Shown here one piece after another: positions 4,349 to 62,209 of a DNA stretch of 64,000 nt (its first letter is position 1; each line of letters opens with the position of its first letter). Made by a program: the position numbers and the translations under genes. The notes beneath the pieces were generated by a model. That model made no database searches. It was not told the DNA's origin and worked only from the letters and a program-made list of their open reading frames with translations. Origin of the DNA: Candidatus Omnitrophota bacterium (GTDB lineage Bacteria; Omnitrophota; Gorgyraeia; 2-01-FULL-45-10); assembly GCA_030695905.1 (NCBI GenBank), contig JAUYOL010000011.1:7887-71886 (forward strand). Reading direction: 5' to 3'.

Positions 4349-4449
4349 TATTTTGCAAATTATATGTCGCCTTAATGGTATTACCATATACATATGAGTT
4401 TACACGATAATAATATCAATTCAAGTCGGATTCTCTTACTTTTTTATGC

Positions 4450-38045: not shown

Positions 38046-39022
38046 GGCATCATTTTGCGAAGATCCTGACCGACCTTTTCTATCTTGTGCTCATCGCCCT
38101 TCTTTAAAAGCGCTGTCCAATTAGGCCTGCCAGTCTCATTCTCATTTATCCATTCGCGGGCAAATTTGCCGCTTGTGATCTCTTTAAGAATCTTCTTCAT
38201 CTCTTTGCGCGTTCTCTCGGTAATGATTCTCGGTCCGCGCGTAATATCGCCGTAACAAGCTGTGTTCGAAACTCCGCGCCTCATTCCGCTTACGCCTCTT
38301 TCCTGGATAAGGTCTGTGATAAGTTTCAGTTCATGCAATACTTCAAAATACGCTATCTCCGGCTGGTATCCGGCGTCGACAAGTGTATCAAAGCCGGCCA
38401 TGATAAGTTCACTCACTCCGCCGCAAAGAACGGCCTGTTCGCCGAATAGATCCGTCTCGGTCTCTTCGTTAAATGTAGTCTCGATGACTCCGGCCTTTGT
38501 CCCGCCGATGCCTTTAGCGTATGCAAGCGCTACCTTCAGCGCGTTGCCGGTGGCGTCTTGATGAATAGCGACCAGGCACGGCACGCCTTTGCCTTCTTCA
38601 TACATCTTTCTTACTAAAGCGCCCGGCCCTTTAGGGGCTATCATAACGACGTCTATCTTTTTTGAGGGCTTTATCTGTTTAAACCTTATATTGAAACCAT
38701 GCGAAAATATCAATACCTTGCCTTTTGTCATATTCTCGGCGATCTGTTCCTTGTAAACCTTTGCCTGTACGTGATCTTCTGTCAATATCTGGATGAGATC
38801 CGCCGCCGCAGAAGCCTCTTTAGCGGATACGGGATTAAAACCATCGGCTTTCGCTTGCTCGTAATTTTTTGTTCCGGGCAGCTCGCTTACTATTACCTCA
38901 AGCCCCGAATCTCTTAAGTTAAGGCTCTGTCCACGGCCCTGGATACCATATCCTATTACGGCTATCTTTTTCCCCTTCAGAATATTCAGATCAGCATCGT
39001 TGTCATAATAAATCTTTGCCAT
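38030..39022 (-). CDS. ilvC: Ketol-acid reductoisomerase
   Basis: [15 protein letters not shown] motif, 330 aa. Confidence 0.95.
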
Positions 39023-42970: not shown

Positions 42971-44137
42971 TTATTCCGAGTAGATACGCGGGACGCGATT
43001 TGATATGCCGCAGATAAAATCATAGGCTATTGTGCCGGCAAGACGGGCCAATTGTTCTATGCGTATTTCGTGCCTGCCCTGTTTCCCTATTAAAACCACT
43101 TCGTCACCTACCTTAACGCCTCTTACATGGCCCACATCTATCATGGTCTGGTCCATGGTAACCTTGCCCACAACAGGCGCAAATTGTCCGCGGACAAGGA
43201 CTTGGGCTTTATTTGAAACTCCCCTATTATAGCCATCGGCATAGCCTATAGGCACAGTGGCCACCTTTGTGGGCCTCTGGCTGATGAATGTCCTGCCATA
43301 ACTTATTGAGCGTCCGGGAGGTATATCTTTTATAAACACAATTTTTGTCTTTAAAGACATGGCCGGCTTTAATTTAATGAGTTTTGGGAATGTGTGCTTA
43401 GGATACATGCCGTATATGATAAGGCCCGGGCGGACAAGATTAAGGTGTGATCTTTTAAAATCGACTGTAGCGATAGAGTTGGCCGCGTGCTTTAAAGGTA
43501 TCTTTATCCAGCTCTTCTCTATCGAGGCCAGCAGCCTTTCGAAGGACTCTATCTGGTAACTTGTAAAAAATTCGTCGCGGCCGGCGCTCGAAAAATGCGT
43601 GTAAATCCCTTCCATCGCTACGGTCTTTTCAGCCGCTATCTCTTTTACGAATGCAAGCGCGTCTTCATGCCATATACCGATACGGCCCATGCCCGTATCT
43701 ACCTTTATGTGCACTTTGATCTTTGGGTCGCCAGGCTCTTCCTGTTTTGCCAGTCTCTTTATTTCATTAAATATTTCGTCATTGCAAAGAGTTATAGCTA
43801 TATCGCGGTATTTGGCTATCTTTACTTCCTCGGGCAATATAGAGCCCAATATCAATATGGGCGTCTTTATACCATGGTCTCTAATGCGCACCGCCTCATC
43901 CGTAGTGGCAACGCCCAAATAATTAACGCCTATATTCTCAAGCACCCTGGCAATCTCCACGGTGCCATGCCCATAGGCGTTTGCTTTTACCACGGCCATT
44001 AACATTACATCTTTGCCGACAAGGCGTTTTACCTGCGTATAGTTATGCTCTATGGCGCCTAAGTCTACATCGGCCCATGTGGGACGATAACGCGCCCTGG
44101 TAACTCCGTTTCTTGTTTTTACGGGAATTGCGTTCAT
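42971..44137 (-). CDS. alr: Alanine racemase
   Basis: VVKANAYGHG PLP-Lys motif. The start was set to the ATG at 44137 that forms an ATGA overlap with the tsaB stop. The track start at 44155 is 6 codons upstream. Confidence 0.85.
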   Translation of the reverse strand: MNAIPVKTRNGVTRARYRPTWADVDLGAIEHNYTQVKRLVGKDVMLMAVVKANAYGHGTVEIARVLENIGVNYLGVATTDEAVRIRDHGIKTPILILGSILPEEVKIAKYRDIAITLCNDEIFNEIKRLAKQEEPGDPKIKVHIKVDTGMGRIGIWHEDALAFVKEIAAEKTVAMEGIYTHFSSAGRDEFFTSYQIESFERLLASIEKSWIKIPLKHAANSIATVDFKRSHLNLVRPGLIIYGMYPKHTFPKLIKLKPAMSLKTKIVFIKDIPPGRSISYGRTFISQRPTKVATVPIGYADGYNRGVSNKAQVLVRGQFAPVVGKVTMDQTMIDVGHVRGVKVGDEVVLIGKQGRHEIRIEQLARLAGTIAYDFICGISNRVPRIYSE

Positions 44138-44814
44138 CGGCCGGTCACATCGCATTCTTTAGAATATATATACATAGGCTCAAGGTCCTGTGCCTTAATA
44201 AATTTTTTCTTCTTAAAATCTTCTGCCGCCAAACGCGCCACAATTTCCGCTTTCGGATGATAATCTTTGAGAACCTTACCTCCCCTCCCGGAGGGGAAAT
44301 GGTTTTCCCCTCCGGGAGGGGAAATGGCGTCACCTAAAAACAAAACTTTATCATATTTTTCCAATTTTCTCAATAGATCATCGAGCGGCAAAAGCAGATA
44401 TTTTGATAATCTCTTTATTATAGACCCGTCCGATCTATACAGGCAGGCATAAACTTTATTTTTTCGCGCGTCCAACACGGGGCATATTATGCCTTTAAAC
44501 TTCCTGGCGTTCATAGCTATAACATCGAGCGTTGGCACGGCTATTACAGGTTTATTTAAAGCAAAGGCAAGCCCTTTCACAACTGTAACTCCTATGCGCA
44601 ATCCCGTAAACGAACCCGGGCCTACGCTTATCGCGAAACAATCTATCTCTTTTATTCTGATCTTCGCTTTTTTTAAGAGCTTATCTATCGTAGGCACCAG
44701 TAAAATGGAGTGCCTCATATCGGCCTTCTTATGAAATTTCGCTATCACCTTATCGGCCTTAAGCACCGCCAGGCTTAAATAATCCGTGGATGTATCTATA
44801 GCAAGTATTATCAT
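44134..44814 (-). CDS. tsaB: tRNA threonylcarbamoyladenosine biosynthesis protein TsaB
   Basis: YeaZ-like N-terminus MIILAIDTSTDYLSLAV...GPGSFTGLRIG. Confidence 0.85.
   Translation of the reverse strand: MIILAIDTSTDYLSLAVLKADKVIAKFHKKADMRHSILLVPTIDKLLKKAKIRIKEIDCFAISVGPGSFTGLRIGVTVVKGLAFALNKPVIAVPTLDVIAMNARKFKGIICPVLDARKNKVYACLYRSDGSIIKRLSKYLLLPLDDLLRKLEKYDKVLFLGDAISPPGGENHFPSGRGGKVLKDYHPKAEIVARLAAEDFKKKKFIKAQDLEPMYIYSKECDVTGR
44281..44328. repeat. Two tandem copies (~24-25 bp) of a GC-rich palindrome CCCCTCC(C/G)GGAGGGG-AAATGG, inserted in-frame in tsaB (encodes ISPPGGENHFPSGRGG)
   Basis: tcccctcccggaggggaaatggtt ttcccctccgggaggggaaatggc read directly. The GC content is far above that of the surrounding coding sequence. 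Confidence 0.75.
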
Positions 44815-45224
44815 AATATCTCTATCTTCCGCTTCTCTTCTCCGGCCACGGAGAATCTCACTTCAGTATATTTTTTTGGCAAAAGCTGCCGTATCTTATC
44901 AGCCCATTCTATAACGGTCACGCCGTCGCTATAAAAATATTCTTCGTAGTTCATCGCGTCAAATGAAGAATAGTGGTCAAGCCGGTATAGGTCGAAGTGA
45001 TACAAGGGCATCTTTCCTTTATACTCTTTTATAATAACAAATGTGGGGCTATTCACATAACGGGCGTTCTTCACGCCAAGGCCTTGAGCTATGCCTTTTG
45101 TAAAGACGGTCTTGCCGGATCCTAAATCTCCCACTAATGCCACGACCGAGCCTTTCTTAAGCTTTGCTCCTAATTTTTCGCCAAGCGCGATCGTCTGGCC
45201 TATACTTTTGGATATTATCTTCAA
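44811..45224 (-). CDS. tsaE: tRNA threonylcarbamoyladenosine biosynthesis protein TsaE
   Basis: VALVGDLGSGKT P-loop, 137 aa. Confidence 0.85.
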   Translation of the reverse strand: MKIISKSIGQTIALGEKLGAKLKKGSVVALVGDLGSGKTVFTKGIAQGLGVKNARYVNSPTFVIIKEYKGKMPLYHFDLYRLDHYSSFDAMNYEEYFYSDGVTVIEWADKIRQLLPKKYTEVRFSVAGEEKRKIEIL

Positions 45225-48253: not shown

Positions 48254-49290
48254 ACTACTCCGGCCTGTTTTATCAGAAAAACCAGAAATACCATACTCAG
48301 GTTATGAGTTATATGCACCGTCATAGAAGATACCAGTGTACCTGTTTTTTCATATAGGAACGCCAACAAGATGCCCAGCGCCATTATGGGCAGAAATCCC
48401 ACTACATGCGAGTGTAGTGTAGCGAATATAGCCGCCGTTATCACCACAGACCATAGTACGCCTGTATATTTTTTTAAGGCATTGTACATGAAGCCCCTGA
48501 AGAATAGCTCTTCTACTATGGGTCCGAGTACAGCCGCGAAAAAACTCGAATACGTAAGGAATGCCACATCTTTTTCTTTTAAAAACATCTCTACCACAGG
48601 CTGTCTTTCGGGCACATATTTTGTTATGCTGATTATTATCGCGGTGACGGCCAATATTACCGCTAAAACCGGCAATAGCGCAATATATCCGACTATACCA
48701 TAAAACACATTTTTAAAAAAATTCTTGACCGAAAGCCCTAACGCCTCTAAATTCTCCTTATATTGAACGATAGAAAGATTTATTATAAAGACTACGGCCA
48801 ATATATCAAGGATCGTCGTATTGATTATCATCCTGATGTTATCCGATTTCAATATGGGAAAAATTCTTGCCCAGAACGCTTCCGCTATGATTAATATATA
48901 GCCGAAAAATAAAAAAAGAATGATAACCTTGCAAAGATCCCATATCGTCCATTTCGCGGCGGGCGGGCTTAAACTGCGTATGTCAAACTTTTTACTCAAT
49001 AACGACGAGAAGATGATAAAATCCAAAGACGTACCGAGCATCAGCATGGCCAGTATCAGCATCGTTGCCATGCCGAACAAAAGCATAAGCGGCCCATTCT
49101 TGCGCAGGGATTCTTCTATATCCGGCCTGCGGGCAAAAAGATCCTGGCTTAACTCCTGCCCGGCCTTAGCCTTTTTAACCTTCTCCGCCTTTTCGGGGCT
49201 TAAGAACATGATAGCGTTAAATAAAAGAACAAACACCAGTATAAGCAGATAGAGGCGCTCTTTATTGACAAAGTTTAATACTTTATTCAT
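48250..49290 (-). CDS. CPBP (CAAX/Abi-type) intramembrane metalloprotease
   Basis: Polytopic membrane protein with EELFFRG and the later FxxxH motifs. Confidence 0.75.
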   Translation of the reverse strand: MNKVLNFVNKERLYLLILVFVLLFNAIMFLSPEKAEKVKKAKAGQELSQDLFARRPDIEESLRKNGPLMLLFGMATMLILAMLMLGTSLDFIIFSSLLSKKFDIRSLSPPAAKWTIWDLCKVIILFLFFGYILIIAEAFWARIFPILKSDNIRMIINTTILDILAVVFIINLSIVQYKENLEALGLSVKNFFKNVFYGIVGYIALLPVLAVILAVTAIIISITKYVPERQPVVEMFLKEKDVAFLTYSSFFAAVLGPIVEELFFRGFMYNALKKYTGVLWSVVITAAIFATLHSHVVGFLPIMALGILLAFLYEKTGTLVSSMTVHITHNLSMVFLVFLIKQAGVV

Positions 49291-50657
49291 CCGGTCACGC
49301 CGTATGTTCTCATTCTAAAAGACGCTCCAAGCGCCTGGGCAGCGGCCTGGCACCCTTTTATATCCACTTCCGGCAGACTAAGGCATGTGATTTCTGTCTC
49401 GATCTTATTTTCCACACAATCTTTGATAAACTTTACCACCGCCTTGTATGTCTTTTCGCCAAATTCAGGTTTACAGATTTTATTGTATAATTTTTCATTA
49501 TCCGTGTTTAAGCTTATCGATACCCTGTCTATCAATCCCGCGAGTTCTTTCGCTATCGGCCTGCCGTTTATAAGGTCGCCGTGGCCGTTTGTGACAAGCC
49601 TTATAACAGCGCCTTTGGCCTTTAAATCATCCGCAACTGCTTTAACAATATCGAGCCTTGCCGTAGGTTCTCCATAGCCACAAAATACTATCTCCTTGTA
49701 CTTTTTCGGATCAGACCCTACCGCTTTCAGCACCTCTGTCAATGTCGGTTCTCTATCCAGTTTAAGATTATGGCCTTTGACAAACGCCGTCTGGGCCCTT
49801 ACGCAGAAATAACAGTTGTTTGTGCATCTGTTGGTAATGTTAAGATACAGGGAATCTCTTATTTCATACGCTATCTTGGAATATTCCTCATCGATCCCTA
49901 AAGAAAATAAGCCGTTGGCATTATGTGTGGTAATTCTCGCTATATCATCCTTTGTAAGTCCGGTTATTTTAGACCATTCATCGACTAAATAAGTAAGATA
50001 AGACGGTTCATTGCGTTTACCCCTCAGGCCTTCGGGTGATAAAAATGGCGCGTCCGTCTCCAATAAAATTTTTTCCGTCGGAACTGTCCTTGCCGACTCT
50101 CTTAGAGCCTGGGCTTTCTTGAAAGTGAGATTGCAGGTGAATGAAATATATAGCCCCATATCAAGACACGCTTTCAAAAGCTCACCGCTTCCGGAGAAAC
50201 AGTGGATGACGCCTCTTATCTTGGGACCGTATTCTTTCAGAATGCTTATGGTATCGTCGTCCGCTTCCCGTGAGTGGATTATAAGAGGCAGCTTTACCTC
50301 CTGCGCGAGCTGAATGAATCTTTTGAATATTACTTTCTGGGTTTCTTTGGATGAAAGGTTTCTGTAATAATCAAGGCCCACCTCTCCAATGGCAACCACC
50401 TTCTTATTTTTAGCCAGAGCCTTTATATCATCCACTACTTTGTCGGTAACTTTACTTGCGTCATGCGGATGTACTCCGACGGAAGCGTAGACAATATCAT
50501 ATTTGTCCGCAAGCTCCACGCACCGGCGGCTTCCCTCTATGGAGCTGCCTACATTAATGATTCGCGCAACTGCGGCCTTAACGGCCCTATCCAAAACGGC
50601 CCCCCGATCCGCGTCAAAATCCTTAAAATCGAGGTGGCAATGTGTGTCTATTAGCAT
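49287..50657 (-). CDS. TatD-family metal-dependent hydrolase fused to a C-terminal radical SAM domain
   Basis: N-terminus LIDTHCHLD...GEVGLDY...HCFSG (TatD). C-terminal half has NITNRCTNNCYFC (CxxxCxxC) plus GYGEP. Confidence 0.75.
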   Translation of the reverse strand: MLIDTHCHLDFKDFDADRGAVLDRAVKAAVARIINVGSSIEGSRRCVELADKYDIVYASVGVHPHDASKVTDKVVDDIKALAKNKKVVAIGEVGLDYYRNLSSKETQKVIFKRFIQLAQEVKLPLIIHSREADDDTISILKEYGPKIRGVIHCFSGSGELLKACLDMGLYISFTCNLTFKKAQALRESARTVPTEKILLETDAPFLSPEGLRGKRNEPSYLTYLVDEWSKITGLTKDDIARITTHNANGLFSLGIDEEYSKIAYEIRDSLYLNITNRCTNNCYFCVRAQTAFVKGHNLKLDREPTLTEVLKAVGSDPKKYKEIVFCGYGEPTARLDIVKAVADDLKAKGAVIRLVTNGHGDLINGRPIAKELAGLIDRVSISLNTDNEKLYNKICKPEFGEKTYKAVVKFIKDCVENKIETEITCLSLPEVDIKGCQAAAQALGASFRMRTYGVTG

Positions 50658-50702: not shown

Positions 50703-50738
50703 GCAAAAACAAGTAGGGCACCTTTAAAGGTGCCCTAC
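50703..50738 (-). terminator. Rho-independent terminator of the giant gene (13-bp stem GTAGGGCACCTTT/AAAGGTGCCCTAC plus T-run)
   Basis: Perfect palindrome 50713-50738, followed on the minus strand by TTGTTTTTG. Confidence 0.75.
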
Positions 50739-50750
50739 ATTATGTATCCA

Positions 50751-50785
50751 TAACCGTCTTACCCACCGGGTGGGTAAGACGGTTA
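50751..50785. repeat. 35-bp palindromic element taaccgtcttacccacc-g-ggtgggtaagacggtta, 10 nt downstream of the giant-gene stop
   Basis: Read directly. A second copy at 60629-60659 differs by compensatory substitutions, and related copies sit in tsaB and in gene 1. Confidence 0.7.
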
Positions 50786-50794
50786 ATTTGTACG

Positions 50795-53700
50795 TTACGC
50801 CGAGATAAGGGTTGCGGCGACTTTCTCGTAATCAGGCTTGTCATAAGCTTGAGCGGGCCTGTAAGCAAGAATACCGCGTATAAGCTTACCTATCTCATTC
50901 TTGGCGATAGCCATGATGTAATCGTCAATCGCTATCTTTTCAGCAAATGTAAAGTGCGATTTTAAGTAGAAACTCAACAACCTGTATACAGACGAACTTA
51001 CGTCTATCTTTTCATCTACTGCGCGCATAAGTAACATTACAACATATGTATCCTGCTGGAATTGCTTCCTGTAGGGGTCTTTAGCACCCTTTGCGGTCAA
51101 TAGCTCATTCCTGTTAGCTATCATAAACCGTATGCCGGCATCTTTAAGTGCCTGATAATGCCTTTCTTCAAACCTTCCATCCGGCAGCTCATTCGGAAGC
51201 AGAACTATTGTTCTGTCCTTTACAGCGTCCGGATTAGCAAGGACACTGTGAATAAATTCATCTGCATCGCGTCCGCTTACACTATCGAGATTAAACCTGT
51301 CGCCATAATTTATCTGAGCTTCTTTTAGCTCGCCGTTTGCAAAGAATTCAGAAGTAACAAGCAGTGTGAAGCGGGTATCGGCTTGAACCGGGATCTGAAC
51401 GCCCGCCTCGTTGGCAAGTTGAATTGCGGCGTTGATCTCAATTTCAGCTGACCTATTCATTTCCGCTACTGTAAGCCTATCGGGTACATGACGCAATGAC
51501 ACAGACTGTGGCCGTTCATCTGCTGTCGTTGTTGCTGACTGCGTAAGCACGGGCTCCACGGCAAGTTTAATAGTTTCCGATCTTTTGCCAAGCACGACAG
51601 GTTGTTTATTAAAAGGAAGGATCGACTCAACAAGCGCTTTTGTATTGCTCGCGCCCAACTTATCGAATATGGTTGCAAATTCTTCATATAATGCTTTGTC
51701 AACAGCGGCACGTACATGAGGTGGTAAATTCCAAAGCATATCCTTGAATGGCGCCGGAAGTTCCTTCGCGGCATCCTTTAATGTCCCTTTTAGCCCCTTA
51801 GGCATAAAATCACCCATTATTTCGGTAATGATCTCTGCGCGGGACTTCCCGGATTGAACGGCAGCAAGTTCTCTATACATGGTGGTTTTCTTTCCATCAT
51901 CTTTAGCGGCCGCTATAGCAAGATCCGCATTCCCAAAGGCCAGATTCCACATAGGCCTGAATTTTTTGGAAAAATTTTCATCCCTTGCCATCAAAGCCTC
52001 AAGCCATTTCGCCATAGCTTCGCCGACTTCCGGCATCATATCGGCAACTATACCGAGCTCTATCTTCTGGTATTCGGTGGCAAGATGCACTTCTCCCACA
52101 TCGCCTTGTTTCATCTTACCAAAATCTTCCTTTTCAAGAGTAGAAGCGCCGTGCTGAACAAACACAGGAATACCGATTCTTTCCCAGTATCTAACATGGC
52201 GCCGATAGATACCAAAGTCTATTTCTCCACCTACGCCATGCATGGTACCTGTCTGAAGGCTTATCTTGCTTGGCCCGACCAGGCCCTCGGCTTCGGCCAT
52301 TGCCAGAATGGTCTTTGCCAGCGTAACCGATCCCAACACAGTGCTTGGGTTATTCTTATGCTTCGGGTTATCTATGTGGCGCTCTTCTATGCCTATTGAG
52401 ACAGGCATTGTCAGTCCTAACTCTTCCTCCAATGCCCTGATATAACGAATAAAACGCATTGTGATCAAAATGCTTGGCCGGTGCATATTCTTGTATAGTC
52501 TTTCTAAATGCTCTTGATGCACTGGAGTTAAAGATTTAATGTCGCCCATCTCTATCTCGTCCACCAGGCGTCGCCAGAGGGACTTTCTGCCATTGTCATC
52601 AAGCCCGTAAAGGAGATAGACGTTCTGATCCAAATATTCACGCACAAAAGCATTCTCAAGTTGTGTAATCTTGTTCAGGGTCCCCTCGTCAACCAATGTG
52701 GAAGGATCAAGATCGATATTGTATACACCCGCCAGCATGGATTTACGAATAAGCTCTTCTATAGCTTTTAATTCTTTTTCTCTCTCATCACCGCCTTTAT
52801 CATATTTCTCCTTGTTTACCTGATAATGGTCGCCCTGGGCAAAGATGAGGCCTTCATAACCCTGCTTAATGGCCGCCGCAATACTGACAGCAGTGAACTC
52901 AGCCATATCCTGCGCCGAGTAGCGCATCTCTGAGCGGGCTAATTCCAATAACAGAACGCCGACATTCTTGTCTTTGGCAGCGCGAAATAACTGCTGGTAT
53001 TGATGGTAAACATCGGTCCTTCCGTTAACAGCGGGGACTGTTATTTTACCCCACTTCCCGTCTTTTTTGGCGGCATAGAAATCATTGATCGAGGCGAGCT
53101 TCAGATTGAAACTGATCGCCGCTTCGCGCAATATTCTTTGAGCGGCAGCTTTCACGTCCGGATTCTCGCTGAAGGCCGATTCAAACGCCAGATAATCAAC
53201 TGTCTGGGAGTGGAATTTAGCCGCATCGAGAATAATCACCGAGTCCGCCGTCACTTTCAGGCTATCTCCAATATTACGCAGGAGTTCAAAAATATCCCTG
53301 GCTCTCGTCGCTGTTGTCACTGCAGGTACCACTGCCGCCATAAACGCGGATTGCGCTGTGGATTTAGTATTTTCATACGCCAACGGGACATCAGAATATT
53401 TTATTGTAGAAGCATCGGAATCCAGCACCAAAAGATTCTCAGGAGCAGGATGATTCCGGAAGAGTTCATATGCCTGCGAATTGGTTATTTTCGTGTTCAC
53501 AAGAGAAACTACTCTAAGACTTGGAAGGCCGTATAATGGTGCCAGATCAGCGACATCGGTATCATTAAGGTCTAACGAAAACACGCTGCGCTCTGGATAA
53601 CTAAGCAAGCGATCCGCGGGAAGCTCATTACCGCGAACAAACTGCTGCAATACTCTAAGCTGTTCGTCAAAACTGGGCGCGGCCGATATGTTTATCTCGG

Positions 53701-56700
53701 GCAGTTTATTGAGCGACTCGCCGAGGATATTCTTCCTTATTCCGGTCATGCCTTTTTCTACGGTCAGTGCCATATGGATCAGATCGATAATCCTCCTGCC
53801 GAATATGAGGTTGCCGTCCTTGTCAGGCCTGGCTCCTTCGACAAGAGCCTTGAATGCCTCTCCATATTTTTCATCCCGGCTGAGTTTTACAAGCAGCGCA
53901 TCATCGGCCTTTATTGCCAAATTTCCCGCCACAACCATATTAAGCATTTTGCGTGTGATATATATGTTGTGCGCTGTTCCAACTAACTCTGTTAACGAAA
54001 CCGGACCCTTTGACGAAGGGAACAGGGCCACCGCACCGGCCGTTCTATTCTTAACATATCTATAGGATTCTGTCGTTAACAAGGTCTTGGGCGAGTCTAA
54101 TGAATCTATTATCTCATCGGCATCAGGCCTGGCAATTACACAGACATTGGGCCTTCTCATATTAAAAGCTGATTCCGATTGAGAATTTATCGCATCTATT
54201 GCTGCATTAATATCATAACCGCTGGGTCTTTTAACCTTTTCGGAAGGCAAAAGGTCTCTAAGGTTTTCTTTCGGCCCAATAACGCCCAGGACGTTCTTTC
54301 CGCAAAGTTCAGCTTCTGTAAAAATACCGCTATCTTTCAAATCCACTTTACCCATTGCTTCCGATACAGGCCTTGCCCTCATGGTCCTTTGTATATCCAC
54401 AACGGTCCTTGAGCCTTTATCGGCGGCAATACACACACCGCCGTCCGAAATGACTCTTTTTCTTTTGGCTTCTTCTGTAATCAACGGAACGGCTGTAGCA
54501 ATAGCCAGTTCTCCCGTGATAATGTCAATACTATCCTTATTAGGCGCCCTTGACCTTCCGCTGTATCCGGTATCTTCCAGAAAAAGATTTTTATCTCTTT
54601 CTAAGCCTAATTCAACAGCAAGCGCCTCAGCCACAAAGTCTGCTATGCCAAGCTCGGCAAGCAGAGGGTTACCATTGACATCTGTTTTTACATTGGCAAA
54701 CTTTGCCGCCAAAAATTTGTTTCTTTTGAGGATTTTTTGTAGTAGTTGATCCTTTGCCGATACTCTGAACCCCTCCGACACAAATACGGCACTAGCGCCA
54801 TACTCATTCATTCTCGATCTAACCGCTTCGGCTATATCATATAAAGAAACGATAACGCTACCATTAGGACTTACTGACCATTCTGGAACCGCCGCAACGC
54901 TGATAGGCGACTCTAAAGCCCCTGAAACGGTCAAATAGCCCATATCGCGGCCCATCATCTGGAACACGACACATTTCCAGCTGCCGGGCTCGGGTGATGC
55001 GCGCCGTGAAAATTCGTTTGCATTCTGCCCTGCGCTGTCTGCGCCCATCGGGTATACCATCGTATCACCGTCTATCGTCTTGGGAAGGACTAGCACCATC
55101 ATGTCATCTACCTTTGATTCTTTAAATTTCTTAGCTATCTTTGCTGCCTCGCCCATATGGTCATTCCCGCCGACAAAAACCACTGTCTTGCAATAACCCT
55201 GTAAATTCGCCATTGCCTGAAGCGTTAACTCTTCGTTCAGCTTGACCCTCGACGTGCCTTGCGCGGCGCCGGGCTTGTTAAGCAGCTCATCCGCCATTTT
55301 TTGATCCACCCATACACGGTTTTCCGCAAATTCCCCGGATGACTTCACCAGCGTATCCAGGCCGAACCTTTGGATTTCAAGCGTCATGCCAAATCGGGCA
55401 AGAGCCTTTGCCAGTAACGCGAAATAATTATTTACACCCGGCGCTTCTCCGCCGCTTATCATTATTATCACGCGTTTTTCCGGAGGAACTTCACTCGGCT
55501 TGAGCCACGTCTTTACTCTTGTCATCGCAGCTACAGGCTGGTCAACCGTAGGCACAATCACAGGCTTTAATATGTCTTCGATATTATCCTGCTTGCTCCG
55601 AACGGCCTTGACATGCTCTTTAATGAATTGCAGTGAAGCTGCATAATCTTTTTTAAACGCTTCGACCCCGTCTTCCTGCAACTTTGTAGTAATTGCATTT
55701 ATGTCTATATCACATTTGGACAAGGTATACATTACCTCTTGTGCCTGAACCGCTGTCATGTCATTTCTCGGCTCGGCTTCTACGCTGGTAGCCATTATCG
55801 AGGCATGCAATGTATCTTTCGGCATAGTATTAACTGTATTTTGCAAAGGGAGATTTGAAACATACATAAGCGGTGAAAATCTGGCACCATCAGCATAAGC
55901 TTCGTTTGATTTTATCTCCGTAGAAGCCCACAGAAGTCTTTGGGGCGCGGCGCCCATATTCAGAAGCTGTTCCCATAGTCGATGTCGATATAAAAATACG
56001 TTATTAGAAACATCGGATGCAAGCACCGTGTTAGCTATAGCGGCTTTTCCTATAAGGCTCTCCAAAATTGTTATGTTAGCCGCTGTCTCTTTAGGGTTAT
56101 CCGTTCTTGCTTTTTCCTTTGCGATTGCCTTCCTTATCTGCTCATCAGCCGCATCCGGCTTACAGTTCACCCTGCTCACGAAGAAACTCGCAACGGACTG
56201 TATGTCATAGATAGGTTTACGATCGGTAACTCTCCGCTCCAAGCCTCTCATATACGCCCTTGCGACATCTTCATAATTGGAAACCCCGAAAAGAAGAGTT
56301 ACATTGACATTGATTCCATTGTAGGTAAGTTCCTCTACTGCCTTTACGCCCTCGGGAGTAGCGGGAACCTTCACCATGACGTTTGGCATTCCAATCGCGT
56401 TAACTAATCGCATAGCCTCATTAACAGTATTCTGTACATCATACGCATATTTCGGGTTTACTTCTATCGATATATATCCGTCAAGATGCTTTGTCTTATT
56501 AAAGACGGGAAACCATTCCACAGCCATCTGTTTCATATACAATATACATACATAATCGTATATCTGTTCGGGCGTCCAGCCTTCGGCTATACCATGCTGT
56601 ATTTCTTTGTCGAACATACCTGCTTTTATGGCATTGTTAATTATCGTAAGATTTGTGGTTTGACCGGTGACGCCTTTTTTCTTAAAAAACCTGATCTCTT

Positions 56701-59700
56701 CAGGCGTAAACGCGCCATCCGCCCATACGCTCTGTCCTTTTTTACGTAGCAAGGAAATACCTTTACCGGCAAGGAGCCTGGCTGTCTTTACGATACCATC
56801 CTTATCAAAACCGTGTTTTTTATACAGCTCCGCGGGCGTTCCCGATTCGCCGTATTTGTCTATACCAAGGTTTCTGACAAATTGCGGTTTTGCGTTCCGA
56901 CGGGCGAGGATATTATCTATCTTATCTCCGAGTAGTCCCGGCAATGCGTCTATCACGCTTATAATATTTCTGCCACGCTCAATGAGTTTTTCAAAATCCC
57001 TCTTGTTAGCTTCATCAGCCGTTATGGATTTGAGCTGTGTTACATTCACAACCTCTACTGAAAGGCCGTATTTTTCTGAAAGATCCTTGGCCGCATTTAT
57101 CGCTTCAGCTGTTACTACACCGGATGAAACTATTACAATGTCACGGCTTTGGCTCTTTTTTCTATTTTTCCCGGACTCGGTATCAAATATCTTATAGAAA
57201 CCGCGCCTTGCGCCTTCCTGCCAACCTTCGGGTTTATTTTGTATAACCGGAGTATCAAGCCTCGCCGGCCTTATGTAATGTATGCCGCCTTTCTTCTTTG
57301 CAACGTCATATATACCTCTAAACAATACCCTCTGTTCTTCTGCGTCAGCACCTTCATAAGTTTGAACCCCCGGAAGCGCACCAAGAACACCAAGCGAATG
57401 CGCATCCTGGTGAGTTCTGCCATCCGGCCCGGTCGCTAAACCACCGTGCGTTCCAACGATTATTATCGGAAGGTTTGCATTTAATATGGCGTTAAGCTGG
57501 TCGACCATCCTCGTAGTAAATATGCTAAATGTGCCAATAACCGGAATCTTGCCGCACGCAGCAAGGCCTGCGGCAAATGAAACCATATGTGCCTCGCGTA
57601 TACCAACCGGTATATATCTGCCTAAAAGATTATCAGCTGAAAATGTCCCGAATAACTTCGCAAAACCGTCAAATTTATTAGAACCCATCAAGTCTGCCGA
57701 CATTGCAACCACATCAATATTATCCGCGCCGATAAGTGTGAGTTCGTGGCCTGTGGCAGTGCGAGTAGCAACATTTTTGCCCTCAGGATAACCTTTCTCT
57801 AATTCCTGTATAGCTTTTTGAACTGTTGCGCTATTTGTTATCTGACGAAGCGCCTCTCTTCTCGCCCCTACACGCGCTTTATTTTCTTTTTCTATACGCG
57901 CCTTCGTGTCGGCACCTAATGATATTTTCCTGATTAGATCTTCTACAAAAGCCTTTACAGCTTCCCTATGATTTTCGGGAGTGTACCTGCCATTGCTTAA
58001 AACGGCTAAATCCGCGTCTATAATAGCGAGCGCTTCTTTAACTTCGGCTTCTTTAGGCGCTTCACCGTGTTTTGCCATTCCCGGCAGGCCCGCACCTTTC
58101 GTAGTTTTCATTATAACTATAGCCGGCTTACCGTTACCAAGACTTTTCTTTGCTTCCTGAGTAGCTCTCATTACATCTTCTATGTCTTCGCCATTTGCCC
58201 TGACTACATTCCATCCTCTTGCTTCCCAGAGCTTAATTTGGCCTTCGTAGTCAACATCAACATCAGTAACTTTGTTATCTATCTGATATCCATTCCAGTC
58301 AAGAAACGCTACTATCTTAAGCCCCTTTGCCGCCGCTTCTCTATACGTTTCATCTTGCTTCTGTTTTAAAATAGCTCCTGCATGCCTTCCGGCCTCATCT
58401 ACCTGGCCTTCTTCGGTTTCACCATCACCAATTATGCAGTATGTTATATAGTCCTTGTCGTCCATTACTGCTGCAGTCGCCATAGCTACCGCGGCGGAAA
58501 AAGCTACTCCTAAAGGGCCTCCTGAAAACTCAACACCGATCGTCTTCGCCATGTCCGGATGGCCCTGTAAGTCTGATCCGAGCTTTCTCAATGTTTCAAG
58601 GAATTCTTCCACATCCTCGGTCTTCAATTTGCCCTGTTTCTTAAGATCCGCTATACGTTTTGCAAAATACTGTGCGCGCGCCAATGCCGCATATAGGCCG
58701 GGCGCAGCATGGCCTTTTGAAAGGACAAACCTGTCCCTATATTCCCAGTTCGGATCACTTGGATCGTATCTCATGATCCTTTCACCATTAGCATTCGTTC
58801 CAAAATATAGCGCAACGACCGCTTTTAACATAGAAAGCGAACCACCCGGATGGCCTGAACCGGCCTTGTAGATCATACTTACTACATCGCGCTCGAGTAT
58901 CCTTGTTAAAAATTTCAGATCCTGTATTAATCCGGGGCTATTTAGGCGAACACCTGCCGCGAATAAGCACTCGGATATCGCGGCTTCATCCAATAAATTT
59001 AAATCCTTTAATTTCGCCAACACGCCTTCTTCGGTAATGTCATTACGCACACGGTCAACGAGTATTTTCAACACTTTTGTTTGCTCTTCACGCGTTAATT
59101 TGGCAACAGCCGGTATTTCAATTAGCCTTTTCCATACATCTTTTGCCCTGTCATCACTTATCCCGATATCCGGCATATTTTCGTTCATTACTGCGGCTGC
59201 CGCAACAGGAGCTTCGAAATCAGTATCCGTCCTGTACTTTCTGCTGTCGGGACCAACAGAAATATCACCGTACGGCGCCATTGCTTGTGTAATTCGATAG
59301 GCAAGGGTAGCAAATTCATTGTAGGTGAGCTCGCCTACTATGCGCTTTCCGCTCTCCATGTGAGTAAAATTCAAAGTTTTCTTCCCTTGCCAACTATCCC
59401 CACCCTGGCCATCCCTCCTCAGCGTCCTCCACTGCCTATATTTATCCCAATCGCCTTCAAATGCCTCCTTTACGACAGCCAGATGGAAGCTTCTTTCTAA
59501 GTGCTCATGCGCCAATAATTGATCTTTTACGGTTGTAAATCCCCCCATGCCATATAACCACACACTTGTCTCTGTTGTACCCGTTTTGTCTTTATGCCAG
59601 GGGGCAACGGCATATATCCACCCACTTTCAACACCAAAGTGCGCGGCTTGTGAGGACAGCTGTCTTAGAAAATCGCTATACCCGTAGTGCAATTCGGGTC

Positions 59701-60445
59701 CGACATTTGCTCTACCCAGCAAGCCTGAAAAAAGTTCTTGTTCAGATAAACCGGTTACTTCAATAAGCTTCTCAAAGATAGCCAAAAAATTCCCGGCGGA
59801 TTTTTTATTATCTGCAACAAACCAATTAATCTTATTAGACTTGTCCACTACGAGGAATTTCTCGAATGCCTTTGGGTTTTTTCCGACCTCGTAAAATAAC
59901 GCGTCAAGCATCGCGTTAAGAACCCTGTGATCCGCGCAATCCATAGGGCCGGCATCTCTAACAGCTGCGGCTGTCGGAACTTCCCGCGATTTCGCCGAAG
60001 GCGTATTGTCTTTCGGGTATACGCTCAAGGTTTGTTTGGCAGGATCGTATTCTATAACATACCTTACATTATTTATGACCGCTTTCAGCGTTATAACACC
60101 ATTGAGCCCTGCTTCGGCTTCATGGCGGAATATTCTACCGTTACGTATATTGTCAATTGCTCTAACAACTTCGGGGGATACGCCCTTTAGCTCTTTCAAT
60201 GTTTGAGGAGTTATCGGCTGCTTCGCCTTTCTCATCGCCGCAAATAATTCCATGATAAGTATCGATATGCCGCGCGTGCCCTGGATGTCTTTGCCCAACA
60301 TATCGTCACTTTTTATGAGCGTAGCGAGTGTGTCAGAATTCCTCGCGCCTAATAACTCCTGCGCGAACCCTGTATCAAAAAGAAATGTATTGCAAATGAA
60401 TGCTATCAACACCACCAAAGAAGCTACACGATTTACTCTACTCAT
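50795..60445 (-). CDS. Giant secreted multi-enzyme fusion protein (~3216 aa). Signal peptide, N-terminal unknown region, split-type transketolase (TPP, Pyr and C domains), long-form transaldolase, phosphofructokinase (PKTIDGD type), unknown/LRR-like region, class II fructose/tagatose-bisphosphate aldolase, C-terminal unknown ~350 aa
   Basis: Single uninterrupted ORF. Start is ATG 60445 (SD AGGAGG 7 nt upstream); the track uses GTG 60451. Tkt motifs: GSGHPGGSLSM..ALYF, DRFVLSKGHAAPGLYA, LQGHPD, GDGETEEG, GIREAHM, GPDGRTHQ. Tal motifs: VWADGAF, GQTTNLTI, MVKVPATPEG..NVNVTLLFG, LWASTE..VNTMP. Pfk motifs: ISGGEAPGVN, VGGNDHMG, LPKTIDGD, MGR. Fba motifs: AQGDHYQ, GTMHGV, FVQHGAS. Approximate nt spans: Tkt 59060-56850, Tal 56780-55530, Pfk 55480-54300, Fba 53100-51870. 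Confidence 0.9.
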   Translation of the reverse strand: MSRVNRVASLVVLIAFICNTFLFDTGFAQELLGARNSDTLATLIKSDDMLGKDIQGTRGISILIMELFAAMRKAKQPITPQTLKELKGVSPEVVRAIDNIRNGRIFRHEAEAGLNGVITLKAVINNVRYVIEYDPAKQTLSVYPKDNTPSAKSREVPTAAAVRDAGPMDCADHRVLNAMLDALFYEVGKNPKAFEKFLVVDKSNKINWFVADNKKSAGNFLAIFEKLIEVTGLSEQELFSGLLGRANVGPELHYGYSDFLRQLSSQAAHFGVESGWIYAVAPWHKDKTGTTETSVWLYGMGGFTTVKDQLLAHEHLERSFHLAVVKEAFEGDWDKYRQWRTLRRDGQGGDSWQGKKTLNFTHMESGKRIVGELTYNEFATLAYRITQAMAPYGDISVGPDSRKYRTDTDFEAPVAAAAVMNENMPDIGISDDRAKDVWKRLIEIPAVAKLTREEQTKVLKILVDRVRNDITEEGVLAKLKDLNLLDEAAISECLFAAGVRLNSPGLIQDLKFLTRILERDVVSMIYKAGSGHPGGSLSMLKAVVALYFGTNANGERIMRYDPSDPNWEYRDRFVLSKGHAAPGLYAALARAQYFAKRIADLKKQGKLKTEDVEEFLETLRKLGSDLQGHPDMAKTIGVEFSGGPLGVAFSAAVAMATAAVMDDKDYITYCIIGDGETEEGQVDEAGRHAGAILKQKQDETYREAAAKGLKIVAFLDWNGYQIDNKVTDVDVDYEGQIKLWEARGWNVVRANGEDIEDVMRATQEAKKSLGNGKPAIVIMKTTKGAGLPGMAKHGEAPKEAEVKEALAIIDADLAVLSNGRYTPENHREAVKAFVEDLIRKISLGADTKARIEKENKARVGARREALRQITNSATVQKAIQELEKGYPEGKNVATRTATGHELTLIGADNIDVVAMSADLMGSNKFDGFAKLFGTFSADNLLGRYIPVGIREAHMVSFAAGLAACGKIPVIGTFSIFTTRMVDQLNAILNANLPIIIVGTHGGLATGPDGRTHQDAHSLGVLGALPGVQTYEGADAEEQRVLFRGIYDVAKKKGGIHYIRPARLDTPVIQNKPEGWQEGARRGFYKIFDTESGKNRKKSQSRDIVIVSSGVVTAEAINAAKDLSEKYGLSVEVVNVTQLKSITADEANKRDFEKLIERGRNIISVIDALPGLLGDKIDNILARRNAKPQFVRNLGIDKYGESGTPAELYKKHGFDKDGIVKTARLLAGKGISLLRKKGQSVWADGAFTPEEIRFFKKKGVTGQTTNLTIINNAIKAGMFDKEIQHGIAEGWTPEQIYDYVCILYMKQMAVEWFPVFNKTKHLDGYISIEVNPKYAYDVQNTVNEAMRLVNAIGMPNVMVKVPATPEGVKAVEELTYNGINVNVTLLFGVSNYEDVARAYMRGLERRVTDRKPIYDIQSVASFFVSRVNCKPDAADEQIRKAIAKEKARTDNPKETAANITILESLIGKAAIANTVLASDVSNNVFLYRHRLWEQLLNMGAAPQRLLWASTEIKSNEAYADGARFSPLMYVSNLPLQNTVNTMPKDTLHASIMATSVEAEPRNDMTAVQAQEVMYTLSKCDIDINAITTKLQEDGVEAFKKDYAASLQFIKEHVKAVRSKQDNIEDILKPVIVPTVDQPVAAMTRVKTWLKPSEVPPEKRVIIMISGGEAPGVNNYFALLAKALARFGMTLEIQRFGLDTLVKSSGEFAENRVWVDQKMADELLNKPGAAQGTSRVKLNEELTLQAMANLQGYCKTVVFVGGNDHMGEAAKIAKKFKESKVDDMMVLVLPKTIDGDTMVYPMGADSAGQNANEFSRRASPEPGSWKCVVFQMMGRDMGYLTVSGALESPISVAAVPEWSVSPNGSVIVSLYDIAEAVRSRMNEYGASAVFVSEGFRVSAKDQLLQKILKRNKFLAAKFANVKTDVNGNPLLAELGIADFVAEALAVELGLERDKNLFLEDTGYSGRSRAPNKDSIDIITGELAIATAVPLITEEAKRKRVISDGGVCIAADKGSRTVVDIQRTMRARPVSEAMGKVDLKDSGIFTEAELCGKNVLGVIGPKENLRDLLPSEKVKRPSGYDINAAIDAINSQSESAFNMRRPNVCVIARPDADEIIDSLDSPKTLLTTESYRYVKNRTAGAVALFPSSKGPVSLTELVGTAHNIYITRKMLNMVVAGNLAIKADDALLVKLSRDEKYGEAFKALVEGARPDKDGNLIFGRRIIDLIHMALTVEKGMTGIRKNILGESLNKLPEINISAAPSFDEQLRVLQQFVRGNELPADRLLSYPERSVFSLDLNDTDVADLAPLYGLPSLRVVSLVNTKITNSQAYELFRNHPAPENLLVLDSDASTIKYSDVPLAYENTKSTAQSAFMAAVVPAVTTATRARDIFELLRNIGDSLKVTADSVIILDAAKFHSQTVDYLAFESAFSENPDVKAAAQRILREAAISFNLKLASINDFYAAKKDGKWGKITVPAVNGRTDVYHQYQQLFRAAKDKNVGVLLLELARSEMRYSAQDMAEFTAVSIAAAIKQGYEGLIFAQGDHYQVNKEKYDKGGDEREKELKAIEELIRKSMLAGVYNIDLDPSTLVDEGTLNKITQLENAFVREYLDQNVYLLYGLDDNGRKSLWRRLVDEIEMGDIKSLTPVHQEHLERLYKNMHRPSILITMRFIRYIRALEEELGLTMPVSIGIEERHIDNPKHKNNPSTVLGSVTLAKTILAMAEAEGLVGPSKISLQTGTMHGVGGEIDFGIYRRHVRYWERIGIPVFVQHGASTLEKEDFGKMKQGDVGEVHLATEYQKIELGIVADMMPEVGEAMAKWLEALMARDENFSKKFRPMWNLAFGNADLAIAAAKDDGKKTTMYRELAAVQSGKSRAEIITEIMGDFMPKGLKGTLKDAAKELPAPFKDMLWNLPPHVRAAVDKALYEEFATIFDKLGASNTKALVESILPFNKQPVVLGKRSETIKLAVEPVLTQSATTTADERPQSVSLRHVPDRLTVAEMNRSAEIEINAAIQLANEAGVQIPVQADTRFTLLVTSEFFANGELKEAQINYGDRFNLDSVSGRDADEFIHSVLANPDAVKDRTIVLLPNELPDGRFEERHYQALKDAGIRFMIANRNELLTAKGAKDPYRKQFQQDTYVVMLLMRAVDEKIDVSSSVYRLLSFYLKSHFTFAEKIAIDDYIMAIAKNEIGKLIRGILAYRPAQAYDKPDYEKVAATLISA

Positions 60446-60500
60446 TGCCACTCCTCCTGTTTATGTTTCATGACGAACTTTTTAATCTTTTTTACTTTCC

Positions 60501-60599: not shown

Positions 60600-60628
60600 G
60601 GAAAAATAGCTAACTTTTTGAAACCTTT

Positions 60629-60659
60629 ACCGTTTTACCCACCCGGTGGGTAAAACGGT
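60629..60659. repeat. 31-bp palindromic element accgttttacccacc-c-ggtgggtaaaacggt, abutting the metG stop codon. Second copy of the 50751-50785 element
   Basis: Perfect inverted repeat. It differs from the first copy by a paired c/t and g/a change that preserves the stem. Confidence 0.7.
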
Positions 60660-62209
60660 TAGGTTTCGATGCGGGGAAATAGTGGCGCGGACTTTTTAAC
60701 TTGGGCGCCTGCTTTAAGTAAACCCCATGATTTCACGTCGGAGAATTTTACCTTTGACGGGTCGTCTTCCATGCCCAATTGGACCATTATATTCTTCGAT
60801 GTGGACGGCATGAATGGATAGACGGATATAGAAACTATTCTCAATGCTTCAAGAAGGCTGTAAATCAGTATTGCCAGTTCGTCTGCCTTCCTTTCCTTTG
60901 CCAGCGCCCACGGCTTCGCGTCCTCGATAAGTTTATTGGCCTTATTAACAACTTCCCATATCTTTGTAAGCGCTCCCACGAAATCTAATTGCGGTATAGT
61001 CTTTTCTAAATCACCCGCCAGGCCGGAAGCTTTATCCTGCAAATCTTTTACTATTCCCGCCTCGAGCCTGTCCCCTGAGACAGCCGGAACTTTTCCCTCA
61101 AAATATTTTTCCACCATAGTAAGCGTCCGGTTAAGTAAGTTGCCCAGATCGTTGGCAAGGTCGCTATTGTACCTTGATATTAACGCCTCTTCATTAAAAG
61201 CTCCGTCCAAACCAAATGGGACTTCGCGCAGCAAAAAATATCTATAGGTATCTATCCCATATCTTTTTATCAGGTCAAGCGGGTCGACAACATTGCCCTT
61301 TGACTTCGACATCTTTTCGCCTTTTATGACCCACCACCCGTGCGCGAATATCGTCTTCGGAGGCGTCAATCCGAGCGCATGAAGCATTATGGGCCAATAC
61401 ACGGCGTGATGGCGCAATATATCCTTACCTATAACATGGAAATCCGCCGGCCAATATTTTTTAAGCTTTGCCTGATCATCGGGATAGCCTATGCCTGAAA
61501 TATAATTTATCAGCGCGTCAAACCATACATAAGTGACAAAATTTTTATCGAACGGCACTTCTATGCCCCATGACATGCGGCTCTTGGAGCGCGATATGCA
61601 TAGGTCCAAAAGAGGTTCTTTCAAAAACCCCAGCACTTCATTGCGCCTAAAGTCGGGCTTTATGAAATCCGGATTTGATTTTATATAATCTATGAGCCAA
61701 TCTTGATATTCGGAGATCTTAAAGAAATAATTTTCTTCGTCCAGCTTCTCCAAATGCCGCTTGCAGTCGGGGCATAACCCGTCATCGGCCTGGGCCTCGG
61801 ACCAGAATGTCTCGCACGGCGTGCAAAACCACCCTTTATACACCTTCTTATATATCTTGCCGTCTTTGTGTAATTTTTCCAACACGGCCTGGACCGCCTT
61901 AATGTGAACGCTATCCGTGGTCCTTATGAAATAATCATACTTTATGCCGAGCGAGTCCCACAGGCTCCTAAAGACAGGCACTATCTCGTCTACAAATTTC
62001 TTCTCCTCGCCTTTTTTAAATCCGCGCGCAAGCGTAGCCTTCTCTATCTTCTCGCCATGTTCATCGGTGCCGGTCATGAAGAATACATCATCACCGCGCA
62101 GCCTTAAGAATCTCGCCACCGTATCACAGGCTATCTGGGTATACGAGTGGCCTATATGAGGTTTTGAGTTTACGTAATATAGTGGGGTAGTTATATAGAA
62201 TTTGTTCAT
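60659..62209 (-). CDS. metG: Methionyl-tRNA synthetase
   Basis: HIGH motif (PHIGHSYT), KMSKS, and CPDC zinc knuckle. 516 aa. Confidence 0.95.
   Translation of the reverse strand: MNKFYITTPLYYVNSKPHIGHSYTQIACDTVARFLRLRGDDVFFMTGTDEHGEKIEKATLARGFKKGEEKKFVDEIVPVFRSLWDSLGIKYDYFIRTTDSVHIKAVQAVLEKLHKDGKIYKKVYKGWFCTPCETFWSEAQADDGLCPDCKRHLEKLDEENYFFKISEYQDWLIDYIKSNPDFIKPDFRRNEVLGFLKEPLLDLCISRSKSRMSWGIEVPFDKNFVTYVWFDALINYISGIGYPDDQAKLKKYWPADFHVIGKDILRHHAVYWPIMLHALGLTPPKTIFAHGWWVIKGEKMSKSKGNVVDPLDLIKRYGIDTYRYFLLREVPFGLDGAFNEEALISRYNSDLANDLGNLLNRTLTMVEKYFEGKVPAVSGDRLEAGIVKDLQDKASGLAGDLEKTIPQLDFVGALTKIWEVVNKANKLIEDAKPWALAKERKADELAILIYSLLEALRIVSISVYPFMPSTSKNIMVQLGMEDDPSKVKFSDVKSWGLLKAGAQVKKSAPLFPRIET

Follow-up and report, generated by a model that had tools for sequence, protein, structure and literature searches.

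We analyzed a 64,000-nucleotide stretch of DNA from a Candidatus Omnitrophota bacterium (GenBank assembly GCA_030695905.1, contig JAUYOL010000011.1, positions 7,887 to 71,886; the whole stretch is called the window, or WIN, below). The subject of this work is a doublet of short palindromic units located inside the tsaB gene of the window. The tsaB coding sequence occupies positions 44134..44814 on the minus strand and encodes a protein of 226 amino acids. Its open reading frame (ORF) and translation matched Pfam PF00814 (9.4e-31), and the top relatives of the product in the PDB were the YeaZ/TsaB chains 3r6m, 4y0w and 4wq4. The gene order is thiL-tsaE-tsaB-alr, and the genes overlap: tsaE (44811..45224), which lies directly upstream, and alr (42971..44155) each share nucleotides with tsaB. 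Since tsaB overlaps both of its neighbours, the operon has no intergenic space there. The PF00814 domain, the tsaE-tsaB synteny and the likeness to solved TsaB/YeaZ proteins all identify the product as TsaB.

The sequence at 44281-44327 is TCCCCTCCCGGAGGGGAAATGG-T-TTTCCCCTCCGGGAGGGGAAATGG and holds two near-palindromes of 21-22 nt of the form TCCCCTCC[C/G]GGAGGGGAAATGG. Unit 1 (44281..44302) reads TCCCCTCC-C-GGAGGGGAAATGG, with C as the centre base on the plus strand. Unit 2 (44304..44327) reads TTTCCCCTCC-G-GGAGGGGAAATGG, is centred on G and is inverted with respect to unit 1. Both are imperfect palindromes, with half-lengths of 8-10 around an unpaired centre base (units taken at 44281-44297 and 44304-44324). 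Compared as 22-nt units (44281-44302 and 44306-44327) they were 95% identical, and the centre base was the sole difference between them. Exact matches to the core CCCCTCCNGGAGGGG lie at 44282-44296 and 44307-44321; the number expected from shuffled sequences is 0.09.

Because each unit is a near-perfect palindrome, both a direct and an inverted repeat can be recognised in the pair, and the C/G difference at the centre makes the inverted reading perfect. The arms at 44281-44299 and 44304-44322 are complementary at 19 of 19 positions and enclose a 4-nt loop (44300-44303), which gives one long hairpin at 44281..44322. The predicted folding energy was -49.8 kcal/mol for RNA of the mRNA strand (z = -6.5) and -25.7 kcal/mol for DNA (z = -5.4). 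No other hairpin in coding sequence of the 64-kb window had a stem of 13 bp or more. The axis of symmetry falls between two codons, and therefore every codon of the 3' arm is the reverse complement of a codon of the 5' arm (residue pairs E/F, G/P, G/S, P/G, P/R and S/G). The units are spaced by 25 nt. This distance cannot be divided by three, so the frame changes from one unit to the next (ISPPGGE, followed by FPSGRGG), which rules out a same-frame tandem duplication.

The first-pass annotation of this DNA had described two tandem units of about 24 bp which keep the reading frame. The palindromic units are present in tsaB, the translation across them (...LGDAISPPGGENHFPSGRGGKVLKD...) agrees with that description, and the tsaB ORF is intact. 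The arrangement has to be amended, as the spacing is 25 nt, the units are inverted rather than repeated in the same frame, and the two are themselves read in different frames. Several other classes of element were considered. A terminator was rejected for lack of a U-tract; a scan for terminators and promoters gave nothing meaningful, with no U-tract on the tsaB mRNA strand. Rfam returned only spurious matches of the doublet to miRNA precursors, far below gathering scores. A CRISPR-like reading was rejected because there is no array. For a miniature inverted-repeat transposable element (70-300 bp, terminal inverted repeats, target-site duplication) the doublet is below the size range, and its flanks (TTACC and AATGG) show no direct duplication.

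Next to the doublet we considered the protein segment that it encodes. The codons of TsaB residues 164-179, ISPPGGENHFPSGRGG, lie at 44278..44325 (minus strand), in a loop modelled as disordered between strands 157-161 and 180-182. The AlphaFold2 model of the protein had a mean predicted local distance difference test score (pLDDT) of 79.6; the score fell below 50, and secondary structure was absent, exactly at residues 164-179. The tryptic peptide predicted from this region is VLFLGDAISPPGGENHFPSGR. We aligned the 120 best hits to the window protein (60-77% identical to it). The stretch between FLGD and WHPKAE was from 2 to 87 residues long in these orthologues, and the remainder aligned well. 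Approximately 23 of the 120 have a length of 213 amino acids and read GDTEENNFKKDWHP, GDT(E/K)ENNFKKD-WHP, at the insert site; the window protein is 13 residues longer than this form in the FLGD-WHPKAE loop. The length variation among orthologues, together with the low pLDDT, indicates that the segment is extra sequence in a predicted disordered and evidently permissive loop. An independent Logan assembly contained the identical doublet sequence.

Orthologous DNA was collected from NCBI, ENA, JGI and Logan assemblies (fetched Omnitrophota loci carry L numbers). A genome scan gave 18 Omnitrophota loci, the source genome not among them. At least eight other tsaB genes (L148, L149, L150, L154, L155, L156, L157 and L018) have a hairpin at this site too, with axis and codon phase identical to those of the window hairpin, and the 25-nt spacing of units was also observed in L148, L149, L150, L154, L155 and L157. 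The arms of the orthologous hairpins differ in sequence (TTTCCACCCCCGGGGTGGAAA; TTTCCAGGCCGGGGCTGGAAA; ATTCCGGGGCCGGGGCCCGGAAT; ATCCCACCGGCGCGGTGGGAT), and their stems range from 17 to 23 bp. Despite this variation the total length of 22 amino acids and the axis were constant in four of the genes. At the centre of each arm CC(S)GG was invariant, and in 7 of 8 sequences the units fitted an inverted relation better than a direct one. Every sampled copy of the insert leaves the frame open, which is consistent with ordinary translation of the doublet. Peptides encoded at the insert site were not conserved (ISPPGGENHFPSGRGG, ISTPGVETGFHPGGGS, ISRPGLEINFQPRPVC, IPGPGPGINSGPRPRN). What is conserved in doublet-bearing tsaB genes is Watson-Crick symmetry, not the peptide.

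We quantitated this symmetry in an ungapped alignment of eight tsaB sequences (A3). In total 92.6% of the cells were paired, and 13 of the 22 pairs had compensatory changes on both sides; none of 500 shuffles reached the observed values. When the partners were slid by one column, pairing dropped to 55-58%. G-U pairs were nearly absent, with a single one inside the core. The nucleotide identity among doublet-bearing tsaB genes was 66-80% gene-wide and 33-85% in the inserts, and the similarity of inserts was decoupled from that of genes (L149-L154: gene 0.72, insert 0.85; L150-L157: gene 0.80, insert 0.53). Back-translation showed that 13 of the 120 TsaB proteins are compatible with a perfect inverted repeat of 16 nt or more around this axis. 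On a rough neighbour-joining tree of the 120 proteins the insert types were intermingled with hairpin-free forms; the resolution of this tree is too poor for counting gains and losses, and we used it for intermingling only. The segment had been taken for an insertion relative to orthologues. It is indeed extra when compared with the 213-residue forms, but as at least eight other tsaB genes share the hairpin axis, it is not a private, recent insertion. The first-pass annotation had named an equivalent conserved peptide in orthologues as the observation that would refute an insertion. Only half of this was seen: orthologues do carry an equivalent segment, with complementarity of DNA and no conserved peptide.

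Other tsaB genes of the clade carry unrelated inserts in the same loop: a hairpin with a 20-bp stem in L153, nested hairpins in L004 and L016, and further insert families. In L016 (3472-3765) the loop has a stem of the type found in L004 (5616-5696), TTTTTGCGGG...CCCGCAAAAA, which encloses an extra hairpin of approximately 100 nt. The nested hairpin is followed by a second, unrelated insert (DWPAFAFNKQ...), and altogether this loop has 87 extra residues. In L152 (10469-10573) the loop consists of three tandem copies of a 14-nt repeat, GACCGGGTCGGTGG, with the peptide VGGTGSVGPGRWE. Another hairpin, (TT)CAGGGTTCC(G/A)CTC-catcgaaa-GAGCGGAACCCTG, occurs twice within 11.5 kb of L153 (5667-5704 and 10134-10167), and one of its copies lies within the 229-nt gap between tsaB and alr. 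One metagenome-assembled genome, GCA_041643015.1, contributed both L148 and L151; it has two tsaB operons (P0002 and P0073) with different loop inserts, which suggests a mixed bin. A metagenome scan with generic TsaB patterns (GPGSFTGLR; an alignment of 60 sequences) yielded only distant TsaBs, with 31-46% identity.

Related palindromes were present elsewhere in the window. The motif TTNCCNNCCSGGNNGGNAA was found, with at most one mismatch, at five sites of the window (two in tsaB, one in a large ORF and two intergenic), against 0.07 expected. A small family with coding and intergenic copies, as proposed in the first-pass annotation, is therefore borne out, together with its individual members outside tsaB; the identical arm sequence is confined to the two tsaB units. 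The copy near the window start is a partial, hybrid unit at 2570..2594 (motif match 2570-2588; minus strand). An ORF of more than 1466 amino acids (2..4399) reads through it in frame and translates it as YPPGGEK, in the context VPSYPPGGEKV. Taken at 2572-2594, it matches an arm at 50762-50783 in 21 of 22 positions, and tsaB unit 1 in approximately 18 of 21 positions by eye. Of the two intergenic 35-nt palindromes, one (50751..50786) reads TAACCGTCTTACCCACC-G-GGTGGGTAAGACGGTTA, has the core TTNCCNNCC-S-GGNNGGNAA in common and a CGTC-like outer tag, and is located directly 3' of a giant ORF (50795..60451). The other, noted previously at 60629 and delimited here to 60626..60661, is of the same type but centred on C; it lies upstream of the giant ORF, where it runs into the stop codon of metG (60659..62209). 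The two palindromes bear CCGTC/CCGTT.

When all tsaB inserts were compared by blastn with the fetched DNA, the only matches outside tsaB were repeat units in L012, described below, and a 14-nt match in L005. Scans of viral contigs with the tsaB unit and with the intergenic palindrome gave 0 matches each. Six-frame translations of the doublet were also compared with proteins; nothing scored, TsaB itself included, so that this search was powerless.

The units in L012 surround a transposase gene. An ORF at L012 3012..3659 (minus strand) scored 30.7 bits against Pfam Y1_Tnp, above the gathering cut-off of 23. Its top NCBIfam match was REP-associated tyrosine transposase (RAYT; REP, repetitive extragenic palindrome), at 67.8 bits, below the cut-off of 80, and its top PDB match was E. 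coli TnpArep, 4ER8. We call this gene, from an Omnitrophota metagenome-assembled genome, a RAYT-like Y1 transposase gene. Three units of the type TTCCCGsCCsGGsCGGGAA (2993-3011, 3702-3720 and 3797-3815) surround it: TTCCCGGCCGGGGCGGGAA on one side, and two copies in inverted form, each followed by AATGG, on the other. The reverse complement of the L012 unit, CCATTTCCCGGCCGGGGCGGGAAC, shares 22 of 24 positions with unit 1 of the L149 tsaB, the CCAT flank included (E = 0.017). A second homologue, 36% identical to the L012 one, was observed at L019 11943-12266.

Palindromes of the arm+CC(S)GG+arm type were found 23 times in 371 kb of Omnitrophota DNA, approximately ten times the 2.15 seen in shuffles, and the exact motif was not found in about 130 fetched loci from outside Omnitrophota. 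A further family, GTAG-N6-YTTAAR-N6-CTAC, consists of perfect 26-nt palindromes whose inner arms are variable and always complementary. It had 14 copies in the approximately 371 kb from 11 Omnitrophota genomes (window 50713-50738; L005 9532 and 11924; L007 5088; L012 8532; L014 4462; L016 2430; L149 3535; L150 4008; L152 4279, 9546 and 10697; L153 11431), and it looks like a classical GTAG-tagged REP. In three genomes a copy lies in-frame in a tatD-domain / radical-SAM gene (L149 3459-3608, L150 3941-4081, L152 4212-4346). These inserts add 9-14 residues (SRAPLRVPYDGEQ, SGRAHLSVPYHSEQ or SGRAHLSVPYNS) between GVHPH... and VVAIGEVGLD, and 14 tatD-domain orthologues, including the one in the window (49287..50657), are without them. 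In-frame insertion of palindromic repeats into coding sequence thus does take place in this lineage.

Taken with the anatomy of the doublet, these observations make it probable, in our judgement, that the doublet is a selfish palindrome of the REP/REPIN type, residing in a permissive TsaB loop, with arms whose pairing is preserved at the DNA level (REPIN, REP doublet forming a hairpin). The two imperfect palindromes of about 21 nt, inverted, separated by a 4-nt gap and in-frame in a surface loop, would be selfish or neutral DNA of the REP family, originally mobilised by a RAYT. The doublet may have survived in tsaB because the genes of the operon overlap and the loop accepts nearly any peptide; the 16 added residues would have no specific protein function. 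Complementarity of the arms would be upheld at the DNA level and not by selection on the peptide. This could occur during vertical descent by hairpin-templated correction, that is template switching or arm-to-arm gene conversion, or by recurrent replacement with the current REP variant of the genome.

REPINs are mobilised by RAYTs (Bertels & Rainey 2011). A REPIN consists of two short imperfect palindromes in inverted orientation which form one hairpin, and its non-palindromic centre sets the orientation (PMC3337134); compensatory changes across REPIN hairpins have been called common (PMC3116915). The doublet resembles this in several respects. Its units are imperfect palindromes of about 20 nt, the inverted pair forms a single long hairpin, the centre base sets the orientation (C/G here, AA/TT in Pseudomonas fluorescens SBW25), the compensatory changes preserve the hairpin, and in another genome, L012, related units lie beside a RAYT-like gene. 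The doublet differs in size, being approximately 46 nt with a 4-nt spacer compared with 89 bp for the SBW25 element (PMC3116915, PMC3337134). It also has no GTAG/CGTC tetranucleotide tag at one end, it is translated and located inside the tsaB ORF rather than extragenic, and no RAYT is present in the window.

The closest documented parallel is that of intragenic REPs. Single and dimeric GTAG/CGTC REPs were reported in-frame in genes of Opitutus terrae, Rickettsia conorii and others, where they encode 20-30 amino acids, and recB of Xanthomonas campestris and X. oryzae carries REPs at about the same site (PMC3733652). As in that study (Di Nocera et al. 2013), whole REPs lie in-frame inside ORFs of housekeeping proteins. 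The tsaB units differ in being CC(S)GG-centred and untagged, and in belonging to the phylum Omnitrophota; moreover, the tsaB site was traced through at least nine diverged genes with quantified compensatory evolution, and it hosts several unrelated inserts.

The first-pass annotation had compared the doublet with Rickettsia palindromic elements (RPEs; Ogata et al. 2000), selfish, neutral or slightly deleterious palindromic repeats which are intergenic as well as fused in-frame into conserved genes. The likeness holds for behaviour only: of the five units in the window, three are coding (two in tsaB, one in the large ORF near the window start) and two are intergenic. RPEs are specific to Rickettsia, have a length of 105-146 bp and carry terminal inverted repeats (PMC2229807), while the doublet is approximately 46 nt long and its host belongs to Omnitrophota. 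The doublet is thus not a member of the RPE family, and its architecture and nearest relatives are of the REP/REPIN type. Coding palindromes in mitochondria of Nematomorpha are likewise perfect inverted repeats with both arms coding and with dynamic gain and loss (PMC6649704). They are mitochondrial, reach 284 bp and lie in conserved regions under amino-acid selection, whereas the tsaB hairpin is short and located in an unconstrained loop. Their perfection was attributed to arm-to-arm conversion or template switching (PMC6649704). The byp elements of Magnusiomyces mitochondria (cited in PMC6649704) are also GC-rich palindromic insertions in coding sequence; they are skipped by translational bypassing and do not require the frame, in contrast to the tsaB copies, which keep it open. 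In the literature we found nothing relevant on palindromic repeats in Omnitrophota.

Several of our results speak against a REP/REPIN-type origin. The link to a RAYT was drawn from another genome, L012, which lacks a doublet in its tsaB, and it rests on the 22/24 match; we did not find a RAYT gene in the window. The tsaB units begin with CCAT-TTCC and are without the GTAG or CGTC tag of a classical REP, and no further copy of the exact tsaB unit was found in the 64-kb window or in approximately 15 kb around each related tsaB. When both arms are removed from the L149 protein, the remainder reads GDA-EINF-DKD, like the 213-residue form GDM-ENNNF-DKD, which hints at symmetric growth in situ rather than insertion of a block. 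Finally, the covariation could equally stem from selection on an RNA or DNA structure.

The last two points lead to separate explanations. If the palindrome had grown in place in a neutral loop by template switching during replication (quasi-palindrome correction), with no connection to REP or RAYT, the hairpins would be perfect despite the divergence of their arms, and the axis and the 22-residue length could stay the same in four genes with stems of 17-23 bp. The apex GAAA-NNNN-TTTC also resembles the ENNNF of the hairpin-free form, and such a mechanism has been proposed for perfect inverted repeats in coding sequence (PMC6649704). We nevertheless regard this explanation as unlikely. It does not account for the palindromic character of each arm with its invariant CC(S)GG centre, for the same architecture in intergenic sites, in the large ORF near the window start and beside a RAYT-like gene, or for the insert similarity that does not follow gene similarity.

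The hairpin could instead be a selected cis-acting structure of the thiL-tsaE-tsaB-alr operon, independent of its sequence, such as a site of RNase III processing or decay, a pause site for the ribosome or RNA polymerase, or a landing site for a protein. The strong covariation on a fixed axis across eight genes would be expected of such a structure, and unrelated hairpins do occur at the same tsaB site elsewhere (the 20-bp stem in L153; L004 and L016). A perfect duplex of 19-22 bp is also about the minimal substrate of RNase III. On the other hand, approximately 23 of 120 close orthologues are hairpin-free, and many others have inserts that are not hairpins. G-U pairs, which RNA would tolerate, are nearly absent, the mRNA strand has no U-tract, and no Rfam family was above threshold. 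Many unrelated intergenic sites of the clade have palindromes with variable arms that pair just as perfectly, so that perfect pairing is not specific to tsaB. For these reasons a selected structure seems to us quite unlikely as the explanation of the hairpin.

Two further explanations are effectively excluded. One of them, according to which the Pro/Gly-rich peptide ISPPGGENHFPSGRGG serves TsaB at the protein level and the palindrome is a mere by-product, could draw on the intact ORF and on the retention of the segment in several lineages. It is largely refuted by the lack of peptide conservation, and the segment is modelled as disordered and is missing from many orthologues; we consider it highly improbable. 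The other is an artefact of assembly or a chimera, as assembly errors can create palindromes. The sequence was, however, identical in the independent Logan assembly, homologous hairpins were present in NCBI, ENA, JGI and Logan assemblies from different samples, and the reading frame was preserved in all of them, which leaves to an artefact the smallest probability of all.

A broader idea is that Omnitrophota preserve the perfect self-complementarity of short palindromes, despite drift of their sequence, by some general mechanism acting on DNA. The tsaB loop would then be a long-lived "safe harbour" in an essential gene, in which self-correcting hairpins last through the divergence of whole species lineages. 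We offer this as a speculation with a rather low chance of being right. If true, it would be a bacterial counterpart to the self-maintaining coding palindromes of Nematomorpha mitochondria. In a variant of this idea, the hairpin would have been co-opted as a processing or pausing signal within the operon; this would account for unrelated hairpins at the same site in different lineages.

Since intragenic in-frame REP dimers have already been documented, the novelty of the tsaB doublet is modest; what is added is a series of orthologous coding hairpins with quantified compensatory evolution. If our reading is correct, in-frame colonisation by REPs extends to the uncultivated phylum Omnitrophota, and the locus shows cleanly, in a natural setting, to what extent selfish palindromic DNA is able to invade a compact and essential operon. 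The doublet would persist there, translated, in the one loop that tolerates any peptide, and evolve under a constraint of DNA symmetry rather than of protein. The at least nine orthologous hairpins could serve as a test bed for the upkeep of REP doublets by arm-to-arm conversion, re-insertion or selection. For annotation, the results are a warning that variation in length and sequence between FLGD and WHPKAE in TsaB of this clade would be derived from repeats and not reflect functional divergence.

We also made several observations on other parts of the window. The giant ORF at 50795..60451 encodes 3218 amino acids, with transketolase, XFP, transaldolase and phosphofructokinase domains, and is located between metG and the tatD-domain / radical-SAM gene. 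It is bracketed by the two 35-nt CGTC-type palindromes, whose opposite centre bases correspond to inverted orientation, and in L148-L150 there is no gene at this position. The ORF of more than 1466 amino acids near the window start contains a 225-nt repeat in three diverged tandem copies (1639-2290; 74-85% identical), which encodes a repeated protein module. A palindrome TAAAGsG-CCSGG-CsCTTTA was detected at window 38615-38633 and at L151 14072-14090, apparently at the same position of a ketol-acid reductoisomerase gene; this one probably reflects conservation of the coding sequence rather than a repeat element.

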